Origin: Spirochaetia bacterium
Lineage (GTDB): Bacteria > Spirochaetota > Spirochaetia > SZUA-6 > Bin103
DNA length: 64,000 nucleotides
Assembly (NCBI GenBank): GCA_965208575.1
Contig: CBDBOV010000006.1
Location: forward strand, 864,001 to 928,000
Direction of reading: 5' to 3'
The translations under genes and the position numbers were made by a program. Below are positions 26,762 through 59,300 of the stretch, in pieces. Within the stretch, counting starts at the first letter, position 1. Every line of letters starts with the position of its first letter. The notes below the pieces were generated by a model that made no database searches, had not been told where the DNA came from, and was given only the letters and a program-made list of their open reading frames with translations.

Positions 26762-27017
26762 GTCGATCGCCGGGCCGCCCACGCCGTTCTCGTCGACCGC
26801 GACCGTGCCGGATCCCCACCTGCGATACCCCCGGCGTTGCCGGCCATTCAGACTCGCTGCTTCGCCGACTACCGCCGCGCGCGGTGTTGTGACCCAGCTC
26901 CCGACCTCCGGCGAGCGGTCGGCGTCTGCACGATCGGGAGCACACCCGCTGCGTGCACCGCACCCCATCTTACGTCTATTGCCGGCCCGAGACAGGCAGC
27001 TTCCGTCACGCATCTGG

Positions 27018-27229
27018 CAGGGCACCCTGTGCCCCATGTGAGGAGGTGCAAATGAAACTCAAAGAACCGCACGCGCGCGCGGCGTGAGCCCGGGTGAACC
27101 CGGATGAGTCACACGCCGCGCGCCTCACAAATTGACGCAGACTGGCCGTCCGCGTTGCGGGCCCGAGAGTAGCCAGGGAGCGGTACTCCGCTACGCAATA
27201 CTCTCGAAATAACATTCAAGGAAGAAACG
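27018..27229 (+). promoter_or_regulatory. Conserved structured 5' leader L1 with uORF
   Basis: SD GGAGGT, uORF, 12-bp stem 27075-86/27112-23, second domain 27142-27206; homologs at ~40620 and ~59090-59300. Confidence 0.75.
27052..27087 (+). CDS. Putative leader peptide MKLKEPHARAA
   Basis: AGGAGGT SD; conserved in three leaders. Confidence 0.55.
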   Translation: MKLKEPHARAA

Positions 27230-29038
27230 ATGAAGATATCTTTCACAAGGACCTTCGCGGTTGCGTTGGTCCTCGTCCTGACCGCAACCGGCCTGTGGGC
27301 TGCTGGCGCAGAAGAAGAGGCACCGGCAGCCGCTGCCGACAAGCAGTATGTCACCGACCCCACCACCGGCAAGGTAGTGGTGGCGCCCCAGTACGGCGGG
27401 ACATTAACCGCCGGTAATACTTCGACCATTGGTTCTGGGGGTCCTAATGACCCCTATTTCGGCAATCCGTGGGGCCCAGGAGGGACGGCCGTCAATGAGA
27501 GGCTTGGTATCGGGAACTGGGGATTAGATAGAGACGTATTTGACTTTAAGTTGGCCTTCGTCCCTCTGTCTGCCCTAACGGGGAGGCTGGCTGAAAGCTG
27601 GGAAATTTCCCCGGACGGCCTCACCTATACCTTCAACATCCGCAAGGGCGTTAACTGGCAGAACAAGGCACCGATGAATGGGAGGGAATTCACTGCGGAT
27701 GATGTCGTATTCAACTTTCACCGTTATCTGGGTCTGGGCGACTTCACCGAAGCCGGACCTAGCACCTATAGTGGCGCTGCCAGCTTCATCTCCATACCGT
27801 TCGAATCGGTAACGGCCACCGATAAATATACGGTTGTGATGAAGCTGAAGGAGCCACAACTCGATGCGCTGGAGATTATCCTCAACGACCCTGCTACAAA
27901 TATATTGCCCCCCGAGGTAATCGAGCAACATGGCGAGTATCAGGATTGGAGGATCCTGGTCGGCACCGGACCCTTTATGGTGACTGATTTAGTCGAGGAG
28001 AGCAGCATCACCTGGACCAAGAATCCTGACTACTGGGGCTATGACGAAAAGTACCCGCAGAACCGCTTGCCCTACGTTGACCAGTTAAGGCGACTGGTTA
28101 TTCCAGAGGAAGGAACAATTATGGCGGCACTACGCTCAGGCAAGCTTGATTTCAGAATGCATGCCCCATCAGATATCGACTCGATAGAGAGCCTGCAGCG
28201 GACCAACCCCGAAATCGCGGCGCACCCGATTTATTTTCGGTCGAGTGATTCTTTTGCTCCTAATCATCGCGTGCCGCCCCTTAGCGACCTCAACGTGCGC
28301 CGCGCGATGCAGATGGCGCTGGACAACGAGACTGTTGCGCGTACGTACTGGAAGGGTTGGGCAGATCCGACACCTCACGGGCTGGTAGGGTTGACAGGGT
28401 ATTTCATCCCCTTCGAGGAATGGGACGAAGAGGTCAAGCAATACTACCGGTATGACCCGGAAGCTGCCGAGAAGCTCCTTGATGAGGCTGGGTATCCGCG
28501 CGGCGCGGACGGCATTAGACTCAAGACCGCCCTGAATCACCACCCAGGGGCAGGCTTAGACTATGCAGAAATAGCTGCCTCCTACTGGGCTGAGATTGGC
28601 ATCGAGGTTAAGATTGATGCGGGTTCCGCCCCCGAATGGGTCGAGAAGATATCCTCTCGTACTTATGAAGGCATGCATAGTGCCATTGCGGGCGCCGGGT
28701 ATGCCCCTCTCTTGATGGCAGGCTGGTATCACTCGGATGCGGGGCCGATAGGGAACCGCGGCGGATCCCAGTGGCCTGAGATGGACGCCATGGTTGACGC
28801 CGCCCTAGCCGCTACTACTGAGGAGGAGCAGAAGAGGCTGATTGCAGAGGCAGATATGTACGCGATAAAGAAGCACTGGCTGATATTTGGTCCTAAAACT
28901 GCATCTTTTCATTTTGCCCAGCCGTGGGTCATAGGCTATAGCGGTGAATCTCCAAGTGGTTTGGGCCGAACAGAAGATTATACCGTCATGGCCCGCCTCT
29001 GGATTGATAGCGAGCTGAAGGAGGCAATGGGTTATTAG
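27230..29038 (+). CDS. DppA-like solute-binding protein 3
   Basis: Motifs APQYGG, LAESWEISPDG, VGTGPF, KNPDYW. Confidence 0.94.
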   Translation: MKISFTRTFAVALVLVLTATGLWAAGAEEEAPAAAADKQYVTDPTTGKVVVAPQYGGTLTAGNTSTIGSGGPNDPYFGNPWGPGGTAVNERLGIGNWGLDRDVFDFKLAFVPLSALTGRLAESWEISPDGLTYTFNIRKGVNWQNKAPMNGREFTADDVVFNFHRYLGLGDFTEAGPSTYSGAASFISIPFESVTATDKYTVVMKLKEPQLDALEIILNDPATNILPPEVIEQHGEYQDWRILVGTGPFMVTDLVEESSITWTKNPDYWGYDEKYPQNRLPYVDQLRRLVIPEEGTIMAALRSGKLDFRMHAPSDIDSIESLQRTNPEIAAHPIYFRSSDSFAPNHRVPPLSDLNVRRAMQMALDNETVARTYWKGWADPTPHGLVGLTGYFIPFEEWDEEVKQYYRYDPEAAEKLLDEAGYPRGADGIRLKTALNHHPGAGLDYAEIAASYWAEIGIEVKIDAGSAPEWVEKISSRTYEGMHSAIAGAGYAPLLMAGWYHSDAGPIGNRGGSQWPEMDAMVDAALAATTEEEQKRLIAEADMYAIKKHWLIFGPKTASFHFAQPWVIGYSGESPSGLGRTEDYTVMARLWIDSELKEAMGY

Positions 29039-30336: not shown

Positions 30337-30667
30337 ATGAATGAGGCGCGGGGGCCGTTTGCCGGTCGTTGGTCTGGCGGCGACCACGCTGAACGTGGTG
30401 GTCGCCACCCTGATCGGTGGCACCTCCGGATTCCTCGGGGGCAAGCTGGACCTGGCGGTGCAGCGCTTCGTCGACGCCTGGATGGCGTTCCCGGGGCTGC
30501 TGTTGTTGCTCACGATCATGTCGGTCGCGGGGCAGGATCTGCTACAGATCATCGTGGTGCTGGGGGTCGCCGGCGGCGTGGGCGGCTCGCGCGTGGTCAG
30601 AGGCGCGGTGGTCGCCACCAAGGGCAACGACTACTTCCTGGCAGCCAAGGCGGTGGGCGCGCCCACG
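30337..30667 (+). pseudogene. DppC-like permease pseudogene
   Basis: Compared with the 43833 paralog: ~230-bp deletion near 30363 causing a frameshift; homology ends at ~30667. Confidence 0.85.
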
Positions 30668-30910
30668 GGGGAGCAAGAAGCCAGCGCGACGCACCCCCTG
30701 CGGCTCCCTAGTCGTGATGTCCCGCAGGTAGGTCTTGGCCCAGATGTTTGGCGCTCGATCGCTCCGCCGCTGGCCTTCTTCGGCTTCGCGGCCCCGCCCT
30801 GCCGACCCGTGCGTGTGCGGCCGACCGGCAACCCGCGGGTCACGCTGGGCCGCGTAAGGAGTGAGATTCAGCGGCGGTGTGGTGTCCGGGTGCGAACGCA
30901 GAAAGCGGTA

Positions 30911-30995
30911 GCGTGGTCCGACAGAGCCGGCCGGTGGGCAGTGCTTGGGTGCCGGGTTTCATCGTCTTCCATGGCATCGAGTGCTGTACAGATTC
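30911..30995 (-). repeat. Degenerate inverted copy R2 of the 81-bp element
   Basis: tggtccgacagagccggccgg...ttcatcgtcttccatg...gagtgctgtacag aligns with R3-R5. Confidence 0.65.
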
Positions 30996-31270
30996 CGACC
31001 GAGAGTGGAGACGGTGCGAGGCAGCCCGCCGTACCGACAGATCGCGAACACGGAGAGAAATCGGAAAAAAGTTGCGCGTACCCCTTGACGCGATTTTCGG
31101 TGCCCATAAGCGCCCGCCACGGCCCGTGGCGGCCCCGCCGACTCTCCGAAAACGACTCGGCCTCCGTGGACGCGGCAGCGCGCCGCTGAGCGGCGCTCCG
31201 GGCGCCGTTTCACCGCCATCGAGGACTCGAACGAATCAGCTATTTTCAATCCCATGGTATACTTATGAGT

Positions 31271-33220
31271 ATGAGTGAAGCGCCTTCCGCCACTTGGTCC
31301 ACCGTTGCCGCGCTCCCCGATCACGTCCTCCTGGCGCAGACCGCGCAGCTCGCCCGCCACGAGCAGGCGCTGCAGATCCTGGTCCTCGACCACCTGCGCG
31401 AGATCGAGGCGCGCCGCCTCCACCTGACCCGCGGCTACGGGAGTTTGTTCGACTACGTAGTGCATGAACTGGGCTACACCGCGGCCGCCGCCTGGCGGCG
31501 CATCAAGGCGATGCGGCTGTGCGACCAGACCAGCGGGGCGCGCGAACTGCTGCAGGACGGCTCCCTGAACCTGAGCAACGCGGCGCAACTGCAGAACCTG
31601 TTCGAGCGCAGCGACCGCAGCCGGGGCCGGCCACAGGGCAGTGACGCGACCGGTGGCGGCCAAGGCGGGACGCCGCGGAACGACGGCGCATCGGGGGAAC
31701 CGGCACCGGCTGCACCGAAGCGCCCCGGTGAGTCCGACGCGGCGCCGGTACCCGGGCCGGTGCTGGACGCGGCGGCGCGGGAGGAACTGGTCAGGCAGGC
31801 GGCGGGCAAGAGCACCCGCGAAGTGCAGCAGATGCTGGCCGAGGTGGACCCGGAGCTGGCGCAGCCGAGCGACCGGATGCGCGCACTCGCAGGAGGGCGC
31901 TGGGAGTTGAAGGCGACGATCGACACGGAGTGCCGGCACGGCCTGGAGAAGCTGCAGATGTTGCTGTCGCACACGGACCCGCACCTGACGCTGGGCGGAC
32001 TCATCGCGCGGCTGGTGCGGGACGGCCTGGACCGCTACGACCCGGCGCGGCCCCGGGGCACGCGGGGCACCGGCGGTCGCGGCTCGGTCAACGGCGCGCG
32101 AACCGTGAGCAAGCCGGCGCGGCGCGATACGGAAACGGTGCAGCAATGCGCGGTGCGCGGGCGCGGGAGCGATGTCGAACGGCAGAGCGAAGTCGTGCAG
32201 GGTGACGCACCGTCCGCGACCGTGCGGGATGTGGTGCCCGCTTCGGCGCCGAAGCGCCCCTTGGAAGCCGGGCACGGCAGCGCGTCACCGGCGACGGCAC
32301 CCAACAACGGCGGGCACACGACTTCGGCGCGGAAGCGCGCCTCGGAAGCCGAGCACGGCAGCGCGTCACCGGCGACGGCACCGAACAGCGGCGACCACAC
32401 CATTTCGGCGGCGAAGCGCCACGAGCAAGCCGAGTTCGGTCGCACTTCCCGTGCGGCGGCGGGGGTCGGCAGCGGGCGGGCCGCTTCGCCGGCGAAGCCG
32501 TATACGGAAGCCGAGGCCGGCAGCACGAAGTCCGCGGTGGTGCGCAGCAGCGGCGGGCACACCACTCCGCCGGCGAAGCAGGTCGCGCAGGATGAGGACG
32601 CGCACATCGAGGTAGCGGAGCGCCTTTGTGGCGCCGCCGTTCCCGCGCCGGACCGCCGTCGGGAGACCGAGCAGGCATGCGGGCAACCGAAGGCCATGCA
32701 CGGAAACGGCGGCCGGGCTGCTTCGCCGGCGAACCGGCCAGGGCGGGCCGACGACGATGGCCGGGGCGCGGCGGGAGCGCAGTTCGATGCCGGCAAACGC
32801 GGCGCTTCGCGGGCACCGGTACGGGGCCACGACCGGTTCACGAGTTCGGCGGCGGAGCGGCTGGCGTACGCAGCCGGGCAAGGCGCGGTGGAGCGGTCGC
32901 CGGCCCTGGCGCGGCACCTCGCCGCGTTGAACGGCTTCGGCGCGTCGCCGGGCTCCCGCTCACGGTACATCCCGGTGGCCGTGCGGCGCGAGGTGTGGCG
33001 CCGCGACAACGGTTGTTGCAGCTATGTCGACCCGCACAGCGGCCGGCGCTGCGGTTCCCGCTATCGGCTGGAGATCGACCACGTGGTGCCGTTCGCGCTC
33101 GGCGGCGCTACCGAGCTGTGGAACCTCAGAATTCGGTGCCGTGCCCACCACAGGTTGCGCCACGCTCCGCGCCATGCCCACCCGGCGAGTGTGCCGAGTG
33201 AGAACCCGGGCGCACCGTGA
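31271..33220 (+). CDS. DUF222-like HNH endonuclease with a central repeat region
   Basis: N-terminal HLREIEARRLH..GYGSLFDY; C-terminal VRREVWRRD..C..C..LEIDHVVPFALGG..NL..C..HH; TATACT 7 nt upstream. Confidence 0.85.
   Translation: MSEAPSATWSTVAALPDHVLLAQTAQLARHEQALQILVLDHLREIEARRLHLTRGYGSLFDYVVHELGYTAAAAWRRIKAMRLCDQTSGARELLQDGSLNLSNAAQLQNLFERSDRSRGRPQGSDATGGGQGGTPRNDGASGEPAPAAPKRPGESDAAPVPGPVLDAAAREELVRQAAGKSTREVQQMLAEVDPELAQPSDRMRALAGGRWELKATIDTECRHGLEKLQMLLSHTDPHLTLGGLIARLVRDGLDRYDPARPRGTRGTGGRGSVNGARTVSKPARRDTETVQQCAVRGRGSDVERQSEVVQGDAPSATVRDVVPASAPKRPLEAGHGSASPATAPNNGGHTTSARKRASEAEHGSASPATAPNSGDHTISAAKRHEQAEFGRTSRAAAGVGSGRAASPAKPYTEAEAGSTKSAVVRSSGGHTTPPAKQVAQDEDAHIEVAERLCGAAVPAPDRRRETEQACGQPKAMHGNGGRAASPANRPGRADDDGRGAAGAQFDAGKRGASRAPVRGHDRFTSSAAERLAYAAGQGAVERSPALARHLAALNGFGASPGSRSRYIPVAVRREVWRRDNGCCSYVDPHSGRRCGSRYRLEIDHVVPFALGGATELWNLRIRCRAHHRLRHAPRHAHPASVPSENPGAP
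32241..32735 (+). repeat. In-frame 81-bp (27-aa) tandem repeats anchored on a palindrome
   Basis: CTTCG-N4-CGAAG-like cores at 32241, 32322, 32403, 32484 and 32565, with degenerate units to ~32721. Confidence 0.8.
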
Positions 33221-40623: not shown

Positions 40624-40812
40624 GGAGGTGCAAGTGATACTCAAAGAACCGCACCATGCGCGCGGCCCGAGTTCATGACGCTCATGCCGCGCGCATGACC
40701 ACCAGGGATTGCCGCCGCTGTCTGGCCGCCTGCGTTGCGGGCGCGAGAGTGGCAGGGAAAGGCAACTCGCTCGGAGAGCACTCTCAGAATCTCAGATATG
40801 GGAGAGATCAGT
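40624..40812 (+). promoter_or_regulatory. Conserved structured 5' leader L2 with uORF
   Basis: GGAGGT, uORF, 12-bp stem 40655-66/40686-97, GTT-loop hairpin, gagagtg/cactctc pairing. Confidence 0.7.
40634..40678 (+). CDS. Putative leader peptide MILKEPHHARGPSS
   Basis: GTG start after GGAGGT; LKEP conserved. Confidence 0.5.
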   Translation: MILKEPHHARGPSS

Positions 40813-42603
40813 ATGATTTTTCCAAGAATCGCACACCCCTTCGTGGTTGTGCTCGTGTTCGCCCTGACCGCCACCGGCGTCTGGGCCAGTCCGGCCGGAG
40901 AAGAGGAGCCGGCAGCCGCCGCCGACAAGGAAATGGTGCTCGACCCCACCACGGGCAAGATGGTGACCGCGCCGGAGTACGGCGGGACAATGACCGTTTG
41001 GGGGGGCGCCTGGGTTACTGAGTCTTCTAGTGACCCCTATTTCAGCTACAGCGACGCCACCGTAGGCGTCGTAGAGAAGCTAGGTATTTCGGACTGGGGC
41101 ATAGATAGAGACGAATTTGACTTTAGAACAGTGTTCTTCCCTGACTCTTTCCTGACAGGGAGGCTGGCTGAAAGCTGGGATATTTCCTCGGACGGCCTCA
41201 CCTATACCTTCAACATCCGCGAGGGCGTCAACTGGCATAATAAGGCACCGATGAACGGTCGTGCGCTGACAGCCGAGGATGTCGTATATAACTTTCACCG
41301 TCAATTGGGTCTGGGCAACTTCACCGACGCCGGGCCTAGCCCCAACTGGCCCGCCGGCAACCTCAAGCGCATCCCATTCGAATCGATAACAGCCACCGAC
41401 GATTCGACGGTTGTCATGAAGCTAAAGGAGCCATCCCTCCCCGCGCTGAATATTATTCTCCTCGACCTCCCTACTTACATAATGCCCCCCGAGGTAATCG
41501 AGCAACATGGCGACGTTCAGGATTGGAGAAACCTGGTCGGCACCGGACCCTTTATGCTGACTGACGTAGTCGATGGGAGCTCTGCCACCCGCACCAGGAA
41601 TCCTGACTACTGGGGCTATGACCCAAAGTACCCGCAGAACCGCTTGCCCTACGTTGACGAGTTAAGGATAGTGGTAATGCTAGAGGAATCATCAATTTTC
41701 GCAGCACTACGCTCAGGCAAGCTTGATTTCAGGGCTCGGGCTCTGTCCCTGGACTCGGTAGAGAGCCTGCTGCGGACCAACCCCGAAATCGCGGTGACCC
41801 CGATTTGGTTTCGGTCGAGCGATTCTTTTGCTCCTGACGTGCGCGTGCCGCCCTTTAACGACATCAACGTGCGCCGCGCAATGCAGCTGGCGCTGGACAA
41901 CGAGACTGCGGCGGCTTCGTACTGGAAGGGTCAGGCAAATGCGACACCTCAGGGGCTGATAGGGGTGAAAGGGTATTACATCCCCTTCGAGGAGTGGGAC
42001 GAAGAGGTCAAGCAATACTACCGATATGACCCGGAAGCTGCCGAGAAGCTCCTTGATGAGGCCGGATACCCTCGAGGCGCCGACGGCACTAGATTCCAGA
42101 CCGTCTTGAATACAGCGGCTTTTGCAAGCTTAGACTTTGCCGAAATCGCTGCCGCCTACTGGGCTGAGATTGGTGTCGATGTTAAGATTGATGTACTGAC
42201 CGCCCCCGAATTTGCCCAGAGGATGCGCCCCCCCAGTGATTTGGAAGGCATGTCCGGTGCCACTGCGGGCCAACTTGGAGACCCTGTCACGGTGATAGAC
42301 GATTTTCACTCGGATTCAGAGGTGAACCGCGGCGGAGTCCAGGATCCTGAGTACGACGCCATGGTTGAAGCCGCCCTAGGCGCTACCAGCATTGAGGAGC
42401 AGAAGAGGCTGATTGCAGAAGCAGATATGTACGCGATCGAGAAGCACTGGCATATATTTGGTCCCAAAAGTCCAGTGTACTATTTGGCCCAGCCGTGGGT
42501 CAAAGGTTATAACGGTGAAGCTGGCTTGAATAAATGGGAAGACTGGCTCATTTTTACCTACCTCTGGATTGATAGTGAGATGAAGGAAGCAATGGGTTAT
42601 TAG
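40813..42603 (+). CDS. DppA-like solute-binding protein 5
   Basis: Close paralog of SBP3; motifs APEYGG, LAESWDISSDG. Confidence 0.94.
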   Translation: MIFPRIAHPFVVVLVFALTATGVWASPAGEEEPAAAADKEMVLDPTTGKMVTAPEYGGTMTVWGGAWVTESSSDPYFSYSDATVGVVEKLGISDWGIDRDEFDFRTVFFPDSFLTGRLAESWDISSDGLTYTFNIREGVNWHNKAPMNGRALTAEDVVYNFHRQLGLGNFTDAGPSPNWPAGNLKRIPFESITATDDSTVVMKLKEPSLPALNIILLDLPTYIMPPEVIEQHGDVQDWRNLVGTGPFMLTDVVDGSSATRTRNPDYWGYDPKYPQNRLPYVDELRIVVMLEESSIFAALRSGKLDFRARALSLDSVESLLRTNPEIAVTPIWFRSSDSFAPDVRVPPFNDINVRRAMQLALDNETAAASYWKGQANATPQGLIGVKGYYIPFEEWDEEVKQYYRYDPEAAEKLLDEAGYPRGADGTRFQTVLNTAAFASLDFAEIAAAYWAEIGVDVKIDVLTAPEFAQRMRPPSDLEGMSGATAGQLGDPVTVIDDFHSDSEVNRGGVQDPEYDAMVEAALGATSIEEQKRLIAEADMYAIEKHWHIFGPKSPVYYLAQPWVKGYNGEAGLNKWEDWLIFTYLWIDSEMKEAMGY

Positions 42604-57319: not shown

Positions 57320-59086
57320 CTAGAATCCCATTGCTTCCTTCAGGTCCTGGTCAATCCAGAGGCGGGCCTCGAGGGCATTGGAGATAAAGATTTCACCGTT
57401 CCAACCTTTCACCCACGCCCGAGCCAAATTGAAACTTGGCGTCTGCGGGCCCCATATCGAAAAATGATTCCGTATCAAATACATGTCCAGGTCTTTGGAG
57501 AACTTCTGCTGGTCCGCAACGGTGGTAGCGGCGACATAGCCATTATACGCTGCGTCCAACTCCGCGTCGGCTCCGGGGTTCCCGCCCATGATGTCCTCTC
57601 TGAAAGCAGTGTTATACCAGGACATCAAGTGGTCCACGGAGGTAACGGCCAACGTGCCGGTGCACATCTCATACGTCTTGTCTGTGAGACGGGCGACCAT
57701 GGTCGCCACGTCAACTACATCGATCTCCAGGTCGACGCCAATTTCATCCCAATATGCGGCAGTTACTTCTACATAGCCCAAATCAAAGATGTTACGGTGG
57801 CAATAGGTCAGCTTGAATCGAACACCGTCCGCGCCGCGCGGATAGCCAGCCGCATCAAGCAATGCTTCTGCCCCTTCCGGGTCATACCTGTAGGTCTTCT
57901 TGACCTCTTCGGGCCATTCTTCAAATGGCACGTAGAACCCTTTGACGTCGCCGACGAGCCCCATGGGTACCCACCTTGCAAAACCACCCAGGTAAGTGTC
58001 GTTGATTGTCTCCAGGTCCAGTGCCATCTGCATAGCCTGGCGTACTCTGAGGTCGTCAAGGGGCGGGTTGCGCCGGTTCATGGTCGGAGCGTTACTATTC
58101 GAGCCGAAAAAAGGTTCCACCTGCAGTTCGGAATTGGTCCGCTGCAGGCTCCGTATAGTATCGATACTCCGGATAGAGCCGGCGCCAAGTATGATGTCAA
58201 TCTTACCCGACCGAAGTGCGGCCAGGCGGGTTGCTTCTTCTGGCATATGCAGGGCCCGTAACTGGTCAATATAGGGCAGGCGGTTGTCCGGGTACTTTTC
58301 GTCGTAGCCCCAGTAGTTGGGATTCTTGGTAAAGGTGAAAGAGCTGGCCTCGACGTAGTCAGTCAGCATAAAGGGTCCGGTGCCGACCACATTCCTCCAA
58401 TCCTTCATGTCACCGTGTTGCCGGATCACCTCGGGGGGTAGAATGTAGGCGTTGGTTGAGATGAGGATAGCTCTCAGTGCATCCGGTCTTGTCCGTTCCA
58501 GCTTGACCACAACCGTCCAGTCGTCGGTGGCCGTTATCGATTCGATTGGCAGTTGGGATATTTCATAGGTAGTTACGGGCGGTCCCTCCTCGCTCAAACC
58601 GGTAATACGCAACAGGCTGAACTCGACATCCTTGGCAGTCAGCTCGCGACCGTTCACCGGCGGCTTGTCATGCCAGTGAACGCCTCGGCGGATGTTGAAG
58701 ATCATCGTCTTGTCATCGGGGGTCTCCCAGCTTTCCGCCAACTGCGGTCCCATGGAAAAAAGACCTCTGTACCACGTTTGAAAGTCCGCTTCGTCCCTAT
58801 CTATTGCCCAGTCCTCGACGGATAACCGCTCACTGACACCAGCGAGGAAGAAATGCACGCCGGTGCCATAAAAGGGATCAGAATGCTCACCGAATGAGAC
58901 GCTGGCCTTGGTCAGCGTTCCGCCATACTCGGGCGCGGTCACCGCTTTGCCGGTGGCGGGGTCGGTGACGTACTTCTTGTCGGCCGCGGCTGCCGGCGCC
59001 TCTTCTGCGGCGGCGGCCCACAGGCCGGTCGCGGTCAGGATGAGGACCGACGCGACCGCGAAGGTCCTTGAGAAAAGTAGCTTCAT
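57320..59086 (-). CDS. DppA-like solute-binding protein 6
   Basis: MKLLFSRTFAV signal peptide; motifs APEYGG, LAESWE, VGTGPF. Confidence 0.94.
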   Translation of the reverse strand: MKLLFSRTFAVASVLILTATGLWAAAAEEAPAAAADKKYVTDPATGKAVTAPEYGGTLTKASVSFGEHSDPFYGTGVHFFLAGVSERLSVEDWAIDRDEADFQTWYRGLFSMGPQLAESWETPDDKTMIFNIRRGVHWHDKPPVNGRELTAKDVEFSLLRITGLSEEGPPVTTYEISQLPIESITATDDWTVVVKLERTRPDALRAILISTNAYILPPEVIRQHGDMKDWRNVVGTGPFMLTDYVEASSFTFTKNPNYWGYDEKYPDNRLPYIDQLRALHMPEEATRLAALRSGKIDIILGAGSIRSIDTIRSLQRTNSELQVEPFFGSNSNAPTMNRRNPPLDDLRVRQAMQMALDLETINDTYLGGFARWVPMGLVGDVKGFYVPFEEWPEEVKKTYRYDPEGAEALLDAAGYPRGADGVRFKLTYCHRNIFDLGYVEVTAAYWDEIGVDLEIDVVDVATMVARLTDKTYEMCTGTLAVTSVDHLMSWYNTAFREDIMGGNPGADAELDAAYNGYVAATTVADQQKFSKDLDMYLIRNHFSIWGPQTPSFNLARAWVKGWNGEIFISNALEARLWIDQDLKEAMGF

Positions 59087-59300
59087 CGTTGCTTCCTTCA
59101 GAGTAGTCTTGAGAGCATTGCGGAGCGGATCGCCGCTCCCTGGCTCCTCTCGGGCGCGCAACGCGCGCCGCCAGGCAGAGTCAATCTGTGCAGCGCGCGG
59201 CGTGTGACTCAGCCGGGTTCCACCCGGGCTCACGCCGCGCGCGCGTAAGGTTCTTTGAGTATCATTTGGACCTCCTCTCCTGGGGCACGGGGTCGCCCTG
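59087..59300 (-). promoter_or_regulatory. Conserved structured 5' leader L3 with uORF
   Basis: Reverse complement aligns with L1 over ~200 nt. Confidence 0.75.
59230..59265 (-). CDS. Putative leader peptide MILKEPYARAA
   Basis: AGGAGGT SD; same length as the L1 uORF. Confidence 0.55.
   Translation of the reverse strand: MILKEPYARAA

Follow-up and report, generated by a model that had tools for sequence, protein, structure and literature searches.

What is a tiny reading frame doing some 180 nucleotides ahead of a nutrient-uptake gene? The question is raised by a stretch of 64,000 nucleotides from an uncultured sponge-associated spirochaete (Spirochaetia bacterium; GenBank assembly GCA_965208575.1, contig CBDBOV010000006.1, positions 864,001 to 928,000), referred to here as the window. 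In it, three genes for binding proteins of ATP-binding cassette (ABC) importers, SBP3, SBP5 and SBP6, each follow a leader that contains a strong Shine-Dalgarno (SD) sequence, a short upstream open reading frame (uORF) and a hairpin. A preliminary description of the window took these leaders for a three-copy regulatory system in which a ribosome on the uORF could control folding of the RNA downstream. The three copies are real, but they belong to a set of 56 in the genome, and this set is itself one class, which we call R1, of a family with at least 70 leaders per genome. The preliminary description lacked this copy number, a pseudoknotted 3' domain and the existence of copies (about 13%) without an ATG, GTG or TTG start.

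We designate the leaders upstream of SBP3, SBP5 and SBP6 as L1, L2 and L3, respectively. L1 and L2 are on the plus strand and L3 is on the minus strand. In each, GGAGGT(G/C)CAA stands 5' of a uORF, and the distance from the uORF start to the ATG of the binding-protein gene is 178-179 nucleotides. In L1 the SD sequence AGGAGGT (27041-27047) precedes MKLKEPHARAA, which runs from an ATG at 27052 to a TGA ending at 27087. L2 (40625-40678) has GGAGGT at 40625-40630 and a uORF at 40634-40678 that encodes 14 codons (VILKEPHHARGPSS, TGA ending at 40678). L3 (59230-59277) has GGAGGT at about 59277-59272 and MILKEPYARAA at 59265-59230. The main genes start at 27230, 40813 and 59086; SBP3 (27230-29038, 602 amino acids, PF00496 with E 4e-70), SBP5 (40813-42603, 596 amino acids, PF00496) and SBP6 (57320-59086, minus strand, 588 amino acids, PF00496) all belong to the same protein family. 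Our check of the sequence agrees with the preliminary description on the positions, motif and spacing of all three copies; the one correction is that the L2 reading frame, rightly placed, opens with GTG where methionine had been written as for an ATG. The uORF also has the stronger SD, as had been noted: AGGAGGU is longer than the AAGGAA or GGAG of the binding-protein genes. Aligned with one another, the three leaders show a mean column identity of 76%.

How common is the leader? The host genome comprises 6.5 Mb in six contigs, with 67% G+C and an estimated completeness of 95%. A blastn search with L1 as the query and a length cut-off of at least 100 nucleotides found 56 copies of this roughly 170-nucleotide element, of which 55 lie 167-224 nucleotides 5' of a family-5 binding-protein gene and on its strand; the exception is a truncated copy. 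The idea of a conserved cis-element of binding-protein operons is thus upheld, and the same fixed orientation and distance speak against a dispersed intergenic repeat or miniature inverted-repeat transposable element. The binding proteins are themselves a large family: tblastn with SBP3 gives 175 hits longer than 300 amino acids, about 120 of them with at least 40% identity, and six lie in the window. Mean pairwise identity among the leaders is 0.68-0.83, depending on the segment, from the uORF start to the last strand of the pseudoknot, and about 0.5 in the flanks. In the downstream genes (n=51), third codon positions mostly score 0.3-0.7 and amino-acid identity varies from 0.2 to 0.8 by block.

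A covariance model built from the 56 copies (185 positions, 37 pairs, with pseudoknot stem a left outside the model) finds 63 sense-strand hits in the same genome. Seven of ten other congeneric genomes also have hits, with 43, 34, 1, at least 65, 38, 6-7 and 2 copies; three congeners (81%, 95% and 95% complete) have none, and the model found no leader in 13 genomes of the sister genus or in 17 genomes from seven other families of the order. A weak hit in one sister-genus genome (G014) is not a leader, because it lies within the coding region of a binding protein (..FHLKEPDPRF..). In a scan for exact 19-mers with one genome per species, the matches listed include many in two Spirochaetia bacterium metagenome-assembled genomes and one in a sponge-derived bacterium assembled in the same way; in matches from other phyla only the hairpin part of the model fitted, and we regard these as chance GC hairpins. 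Sponge metagenome and metatranscriptome runs contain the window sequence.

The comparison with Rfam proposed in the preliminary description gave no family: with Rfam 15 there were no matches at gathering thresholds anywhere in the window. At E values up to 10, positions 26900-27300 matched only osmY (14.7 bits; gathering threshold 46.9) and a microRNA, and at E values up to 1 a set of 20 leaders of all classes gave only a partial group II intron match outside the leader. Searches of the literature found no published description of the element. We conclude that the leader is undescribed and restricted to several genomes of one uncultured sponge-associated spirochaete genus. The intron match itself is a 5' end (RF02005, with E 6e-4 and 23.8 bits, truncated where the locus stops) at about 509113-509147 of contig C4 of this genome, just 5' of and antisense to one leader copy (L068:287-321 (+)). 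At least eight leader copies have in common an upstream sequence of about 150 nucleotides with a small CCGG..CCGG hairpin, and copies of the intron may sit beside many leaders.

Is the uORF translated? To collect homologs and examine the frame, as the preliminary description had suggested, we combined the 56 copies with 100 from relatives and located the uORF core in 152 of the 156. The relatives' sample consists of all 33 hits of one genome, six of the seven of another, one false hit and, for the rest, the top-scoring hits listed for three further genomes, so it leans toward well-conserved copies; because the copies are kin, the counts that follow are occurrences, not independent events. The consensus is MILKEPHARAA followed by a stop codon. 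The first codon is ATG in 110 copies, GTG in 15, TTG in 7, CTG in 6 and none of these in 14. Its variation is concentrated where alternative starts differ: position 1 departs from the consensus 38 times (G 23, T 8, C 7), positions 2 and 3 only 7 and 8 times. The codons that follow vary in the manner of a reading frame. Minor bases at positions 1, 2 and 3 number 1, 10 and 22 in the leucine codon CTC, 2, 2 and 19 in the lysine codon AAA, and 2, 2 and 28 both in the glutamate codon GAA and in the proline codon CCG. Over Lys-Glu-Pro this amounts to 70 synonymous against 14 non-synonymous differences, and the four-fold degenerate proline site uses all four bases. An SD-like match lies 5' of the start in 113 of the 132 copies that begin with ATG, GTG or TTG. 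The length of 11 codons is kept in 115 of the 152, and 107 of these also have the start. Conservation of the peptide does not extend throughout: codon 7 varies at all three positions, residue 8 is variable as well, and codons 8-11 supply bases of the stem. Three-base periodicity of this kind is predicted by selection on a translated peptide and not by an unpaired RNA motif. From its pattern of substitution, then, the uORF looks translated. Its initiation region is A/U-rich. Of three minimum-energy folds calculated for consensus-type copies, two leave most of this region unpaired; the L1 fold shows only a local helix of three pairs in it.

The peptide has no run of a single residue (the consensus holds at most three alanines, and their codons lie in the stem), so the earlier statement that this is not a classical amino-acid attenuator stands. 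A resemblance to the binding proteins deserves comment. SBP3 encodes VVMKLKEPQ at 27839-27856, and its MKLKEP is the same as that of the L1 uORF (27052-27069), although all five synonymous positions differ. These proteins have a conserved strand with the motif TVVxKL(K/T)(E/R)P, and LKEP occurs in 9 of 51 paralogs. Gene conversion of the ..KLKEP.. motif into the uORF is rejected on the five differences out of five in SBP3; the match could be coincidence or the old capture of a gene fragment.

The 3' half of the uORF forms the 5' arm of a hairpin, H1. In L1 (27075-27123) its 12 pairs join 27075-27086 to 27112-27123, one of them U-A, and folding adds an apical stem, H2 (27090-27094 with 27099-27103). 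The corresponding pairings are 40655-40666 with 40686-40697 (CATGCGCGCGGC/GCCGCGCGCATG; 40655-40697) in L2, checked by hand, and 59242-59231 with 59204-59193 (59193-59242) in L3. Base by base the 12-pair stem is exact in all three, as first described. Among all copies, the H1 cells are paired in 96.4% of the 56 from this genome and 96.8% of 98 from relatives; H2 is absent from about a quarter. The L1 leader as a whole folds to -74.3 kcal/mol, compared with -61.7 +/- 4.1 in 200 dinucleotide shuffles (z -3.1; none of the 200 as good). The 5' arm begins 23 nucleotides after the A of the uORF start and the uORF stop lies inside the hairpin in L1 to L3 (in L2 within its loop), so that the last codons and the stop are in the arm or the loop and a translating ribosome must open the stem. 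A ribosome that passes Pro6 must melt H1; one held at Lys-Glu-Pro would keep it open.

Downstream of H1, the L1 linker (27124-27141) is C-rich, G-poor and marked in alignments by a conserved TTGAC(T/G)C. By eye, the leaders have C-rich and G-poor linkers both after the hairpin and after the pseudoknot. A seven-base palindrome, TGAGTCA (27105-27111), lies in the internal loop of H1, and TGAC(T/G)CA (27133-27139) in the linker; the two are about 28 nucleotides apart in most copies. Pairing of UGAGUCA with UGACUCA is conserved in the main type. We do not accept it as a helix: the L2 type lacks it, and two changes on one side are not compensated on the other.

The domain between the linker and the main gene was missing from the earlier picture; the conserved bases not yet accounted for lie in it. 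In L1, two interleaved helices, CUGGC/GCCAG (stem a, 27142-27146 with 27172-27176) and GAGAGUA/UACUCUC (stem b, 27165-27171 with 27199-27205), form an H-type pseudoknot; the last strand ends 25 nucleotides 5' of the SBP3 ATG. Loop 1 contains a hairpin of six pairs with a GUU loop (H3, 27148-27162) and loop 3 one of seven (H4, 27177-27194). These L1 assignments rest on pair counts in aligned copies. The L2 domain (40718-40785; 114 bits with the R1 model), assigned by hand, has stem b at 40745-40751 with 40779-40785, H3 at 40728-40733 with 40737-40742 and a weaker stem a in a shifted register, about 40718-40722 with 40751-40755. In L3 (59111-59175, by hand and with the R1 model), stem a pairs 59175-59170 with 59144-59139, H3 pairs 59169-59163 with 59159-59153 and carries a compensatory G-C, stem b pairs 59151-59145 with 59117-59111 in six of seven positions, and H4 pairs 59139-59133 with 59128-59122. 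In many copies the main SD lies in the loop of a hairpin of four to five pairs, with the AUG in its 3' strand.

Do these helices covary? Structure tests used the 56 copies of this genome and 98 from relatives aligned to the R1 model, with 500 shuffles for each. In the first set 89.4% of cells are paired, and 16 pairs changed on both sides compare with 8.5 +/- 2.2 in shuffles, none of which reached that number; controls with a slid register gave 28-54% pairing. In the second set the figures are 93.8% and 19 against 6.3 +/- 1.8, again 0 of 500. Stem a is paired in 84% of the first set and 95.5% of the second. Stem b (86-94% paired) alternates between UA/CG and AU/GC, with double changes at five of seven pairs in this genome and three of seven in relatives. 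H3 (97-98% paired) shows C-G/U-G exchanges and some double changes, and H4 has double changes at three of seven pairs in this genome and six of seven in relatives. On the evidence of the alignments this is an H-type pseudoknot, both stems of which are supported by compensatory change. One further pairing was considered, with uORF codons 2 and 3 (AUACUC) as a decoy for the 5' strand of stem b. It shows no covariation: AUACUC is retained where stem b reads GAGCGUA/UACGCUC, and where AUACGC occurs it does not match the stem b 5' strand of the same copy.

Which part of the leader is common to other leaders? In our comparison it is the pseudoknot, not the hairpin. Clustering the 420 nucleotides upstream of 109 paralogs yields one cluster of 54, of which 51 have an R1 leader, and many small ones; another, cluster 1 with ten members, has no pseudoknot. 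Several of the small clusters share the pseudoknot plan with other stem a sequences, for example CCCUCGC/GCGAGGG, CCGUCGC/GCGACGG and CCCGCGC/GCGCGGG, often extended by GUGCCG/CGGCAC, and keep GAGAG..CUCUC. Single sequences are a poor guide here: a search for stem a complementarity was not significant, with eight-nucleotide complements in 6-18% of shuffles of this G+C-rich DNA, and support for the pseudoknot therefore rests on aligned columns. In 43 domains of other classes (27 from relatives and 16 from this genome, aligned by MAFFT alone, with no fitting to the fold), pairing holds in 91.3% of cells and 10 both-side changes compare with 4.7 +/- 1.3 in shuffles (0 of 500). One stem b pair is UA in 23 domains and CG in 14; one class has a U.C mismatch in stem a in five of its seven members. 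Where the pseudoknot can be plausibly located, its end lies 22-39 nucleotides from the main start across classes.

A strict motif for the shared core, GAGAG-N10-14-CGGCA-N10-20-CUCUCRA, matches 24, 23, 16, 46, 16 and 3 times in six leader-rich genomes, once (G020) among the other 35 relatives and once in 300 other genomes of the phylum; its reversed control has no match in all 41 genomes. Upstream of the same pseudoknot, the other classes carry a strong SD (AAGGAGGU or similar) and a uORF of two to nine codons (MSM, VKK, MKD, MPPQTGYD) or a bare start-stop, and in one class of this genome the start has been lost. R1 is thus one class of a lineage-specific leader family, with at least 70 leaders per genome, that is united by the pseudoknot.

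The two levels of this classification behave differently on a FastTree phylogeny of 107 paralogs, built without the signal region (median support 94, with 90 or more on 58% of branches). Whether a paralog has a pseudoknot leader of any kind changes 9 times; shuffles give 26.6 +/- 1.7 such changes. Whether the leader is R1 or of another class changes 27 times, where shuffles give 36.0 +/- 2.8 with a minimum of 28. SBP3 itself is closer to one paralog from another leader class (59%) than to most paralogs that carry R1 (43-50%). The R1 class is nearly uncoupled from the gene tree, which suggests that leaders have repeatedly been replaced or converted among paralogs; R1 appears to have been swapped in this way. 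That the leaders resemble one another more closely than the genes do is partly explained by such swapping. Selection acts on the leaders as well, as is shown by the patterns at wobble positions and compensatory pairs.

How, then, might the leader work? We favor the view that R1 is a new lineage-restricted, translation-sensing cis-regulatory leader, in which translation of the uORF, or pausing on it, controls refolding or the access of Rho, and in which the pseudoknot gates initiation on the main gene. We put the probability of this reading at about one half. Ribosomes would load on the accessible A/U-rich site of the uORF. Translation or pausing on Lys-Glu-Pro would unwind H1, and the fate of the leader would thereby be coupled to translational status, either because linker and pseudoknot refold or because Rho ends transcription early, or through the two together. 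Beside the main ribosome-binding site, the pseudoknot would set or gate initiation of the binding protein. The signal would be global and not substrate-specific, since near-identical leaders stand before dozens of operons whose binding proteins diverge. That the leader sets the expression level of nutrient-uptake genes is probable. The sequence data show the number and placement of the copies, the coding signature, the two stems of the pseudoknot and the restricted distribution; translation itself, the direction of regulation, the signal and any part played by Rho are what we infer.

Several observations fit such a scheme. A Rho gene is present (TIGR00767, 699 bits, above the cut-off) and, like the coding signature of a uORF in a long leader, is what uORF-controlled, Rho-dependent attenuation would need. 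In four sponge metatranscriptome runs from three studies there are contigs that cover the leader together with SBP3. A scan for consensus promoters found none at the three window leaders; a relaxed promoter-like sequence, TTGACN-N16-18-NANNNT, lies upstream of the uORF in 13 of the 56 copies and inside the leader in none of them.

Other results weigh against this reading. The preliminary description had held that frequent loss of start or frame would speak against its proposal: 20 of the 152 copies lack an ATG, GTG or TTG start (6 of them have CTG) and 37 lack the frame of 11 codons, a minority that is not negligible. Eight copies stop directly after the proline, and about 10 are shifted by a two-nucleotide deletion into reading frames of 17-48 codons. 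In a listing of 21 start-less copies, one more than the count above, apparently through a different placement of the motif in one sequence, an SD and ATG further upstream and in frame are convincing in one case only, where they open the frame MKRRDTGRKKILKEP. This is the copy at C5:846883 (L086), which with a copy in genome G008 (L094) makes up a sub-type without the usual SD and start. The start-stop uORFs of other classes mean that peptide-specific stalling cannot be the general principle. One paralog, at C6:43816-44034 (L264), has TTGACA-N17-TATGGT directly 5' of a pseudoknot domain (C6:43919-43991) and neither uORF nor hairpin, so that the second module can stand alone; there the pseudoknot would be essentially the whole 5' untranslated region. 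The idea that a ribosome on the uORF controls folding of the leader also survives only in part. Such a ribosome must open the stem, but the folds show no relay to the main start, and intrinsic-terminator-like sites were not found on the sense strand of the three window leaders. In partition-function folds without the pseudoknot (n=44), accessibility of the main SD and AUG was unchanged by blocking the uORF: 0.43 when free, 0.44 with a ribosome covering up to 12 nucleotides past the stop and 0.43 with one stalled at Pro6. A simple relay of the erm or trp kind is therefore not evident. Constrained minimum-energy folds paired the freed 3' arm only with the signal-peptide coding region, which we took for unspecific GC pairing. 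The RNA data are contigs whose depth is pooled over many paralogs; they can neither give a transcription start nor separate the paralogs, and the lower depth upstream of 27020 is not usable for placing a start, since depth sums paralogs. Finally, descent and partial selection by score mean that the counts above overstate the number of independent events.

A bolder version of the same idea would make MILKEP a very short sensory or intrinsic arrest peptide that parks the ribosome at the hairpin, with the pseudoknot, as aptamer or protein operator, for a second input; the leader would then be a two-input switch that subjects 50-100 nutrient importers of a sponge symbiont to a single global signal, spread as a recombining cassette. 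We think this rather unlikely.

The alternative that survives best turns the emphasis around. The pseudoknot would be the real regulator, either a small-molecule aptamer or an operator for some RNA-binding protein through which a global state is reported. The uORF and hairpin would be accessories: by having the long leader translated, they would shield it from Rho or nucleases. The behavior of the pseudoknot across classes speaks for it: it is the sole part common to all its leader classes, its unpaired GAGAG, CGGCA and CUCUC-GAA are invariant, its distance from the start is nearly constant, its presence tracks the binding-protein tree and, in the paralog just described, it stands alone behind a promoter-like site. 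Yet even the relaxed searches, with E up to 1-10, gave no Rfam family for it, there is no candidate ligand or protein (CsrA, PF02599, has no match in this genome), and some 70 copies of one aptamer per genome, within part of one genus, would be unusual. Nor does it explain why Lys-Glu-Pro is conserved at the amino-acid level. We regard this account as possible, on the doubtful side.

Less probable still is a module for constitutive expression or stability that senses nothing. STAB-SD and other ribosome-block stabilizers act through occupancy of a leader SD, and a ribosome bound or parked at the upstream SD and mini-ORF, as in these or in ermC, with stable structures behind it, would shield a highly expressed mRNA against decay. 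Cells typically require more binding protein than permease, and no feature of the first module is as constant across classes as a strong SD, which is present also with start-stop uORFs and in the class without a start. In Bacillus, however, such stabilizers block RNase J, a 5'-to-3' exonuclease, and a search of the genome (95% complete) for RNase J (TIGR00649) gave no match. In copies with a promoter-like site, 50-110 nucleotides or more separate the SD from the inferred 5' end. The conserved peptide and the geometry of the pseudoknot would go unexplained.

Could the similarity of the leaders simply be a by-product of recent spread, a recombining cassette homogenized by gene conversion and with little function of its own? 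The near-random scatter of R1 on the tree, the affinity of SBP3 for a paralog of another leader class and a copy number that ranges from 0 to at least 65 between congeneric genomes all lean that way. But the tree is a FastTree analysis only, the orientation and gene distance are strict in 55 of 56 copies, variation is concentrated at wobble positions and compensatory pairs, and the leaders persist in several species. Swapping is also compatible with function, and may be the route by which a useful module spread; on its own we think it an improbable explanation. An element that acts as DNA or in antisense, whether a TGAGTCA/TGACTCA operator pair or a terminator made of the GC stem and the T-rich complement of the uORF, could draw on the two conserved palindromes and on minus-strand terminator-like calls in L1 (27083-27066 and 27086-27070) and L2 (40662-40650), but there is no such call at L3, the single-sided palindrome changes go uncompensated, and three-base periodicity, pseudoknot covariation and fixed sense orientation would be left unexplained, so that we consider it very improbable.

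Returning to the translation-sensing leader, we ask which known systems it most resembles. In the trp, his, leu and thr attenuators, a short leader ORF ends within the first strand of a stable hairpin. The uORF of R1 does the same; unlike them, the three window leaders have neither a run of regulatory codons nor a terminator hairpin with a U-tract. In the ermC, ermB, cat and cmlA leaders and in tnaC, the sequence of the peptide matters and a hairpin that overlaps the 3' part of the leader ORF is opened by a stalled ribosome; the main SD is hidden in a second hairpin in the erm and cat type, and in tnaC a Rho utilization (rut) site beside the stop is hidden. The R1 hairpin overlaps the uORF in the same way and would likewise be opened by a stalled ribosome, but the main SD of R1 is about 110 nucleotides beyond the hairpin, behind the pseudoknot, and the genes are nutrient importers rather than resistance or catabolic genes. 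H-type pseudoknots also stand upstream of ribosome-binding sites in the SAM-II, preQ1 and fluoride riboswitches and in the rpsO operator bound by S15. R1 shares with these a compact pseudoknot of two stems that contains conserved unpaired bases and lies directly 5' of where initiation takes place; it differs in matching no Rfam model and in that its 3' strand does not cover the SD.

Two recently reported systems come close in other respects. For the toiL uORF in the topAI-yjhQ leader of E. coli, the position of the ribosome is proposed to reshape the RNA and so to govern how well the main gene is translated and whether Rho terminates transcription early (Baniulyte and Wade, eLife 2025, PMC12121999). 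Both there and in R1 a short uORF lies in a long structured leader, and the R1 host has a Rho gene. toiL is reported as a single locus without a pseudoknot module, in contrast to the 56 or more R1 copies per genome with their conserved Lys-Glu-Pro, and its structure occludes the main ribosome-binding site, a relay that the pseudoknot-free R1 folds do not show. In Sinorhizobium meliloti, upstream ribosome-binding sites and mini-uORFs are described that act by coupling or by occlusion of a main site 3-25 nucleotides away (Dietz et al., Microlife 2026, PMC13285730). A leader SD and start act there through occupancy by ribosomes and not through a product, as they may in R1; the two sites of R1 are about 180 nucleotides apart. 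In working principle the closest relatives of R1 are the toiL/topAI leader and the peptide-dependent attenuators, although it is a member of neither family. We would place it among the uORF-containing structured leaders, as one that has a new pseudoknot motif.

The genes behind the leaders show some peculiarities of their own. In the first 90 or so nucleotides of binding-protein genes, the region encoding the signal anchor (..AGGACCTTCGCGGTTGCGTTGGTCCT..) contains an inverted repeat of six pairs, for example at 27256-27282 in SBP3, and third codon positions are somewhat more alike in the first 100 or so alignment columns (0.58-0.80) than in most later blocks (0.3-0.6). In the SBP3 operon (30341-33220), the match between BPD_transp_1 and the second permease ORF covers only the first half of that domain, and 3' of this ORF another, of 651 amino acids and with an HNH endonuclease domain, takes the place of the ATPase genes; this may be the insertion of a mobile element.

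The immediate impact of these findings is limited by the narrow distribution of the leader and by the lack of a cultured host. If our reading is correct, R1 represents an undescribed architecture of cis-regulatory RNA, in which a translated micro-ORF with a conserved peptide is combined with a hairpin and an H-type pseudoknot. It would be used at least 70 times per genome within one lineage of uncultured symbionts, where it would control the largest gene family, the family-5 ABC importers. The hundreds of natural variants would provide a test bed for the cooperation of leader translation with RNA tertiary structure, and could throw light on the spread of a regulatory module from paralog to paralog and on the coordination of nutrient uptake in sponge symbionts.

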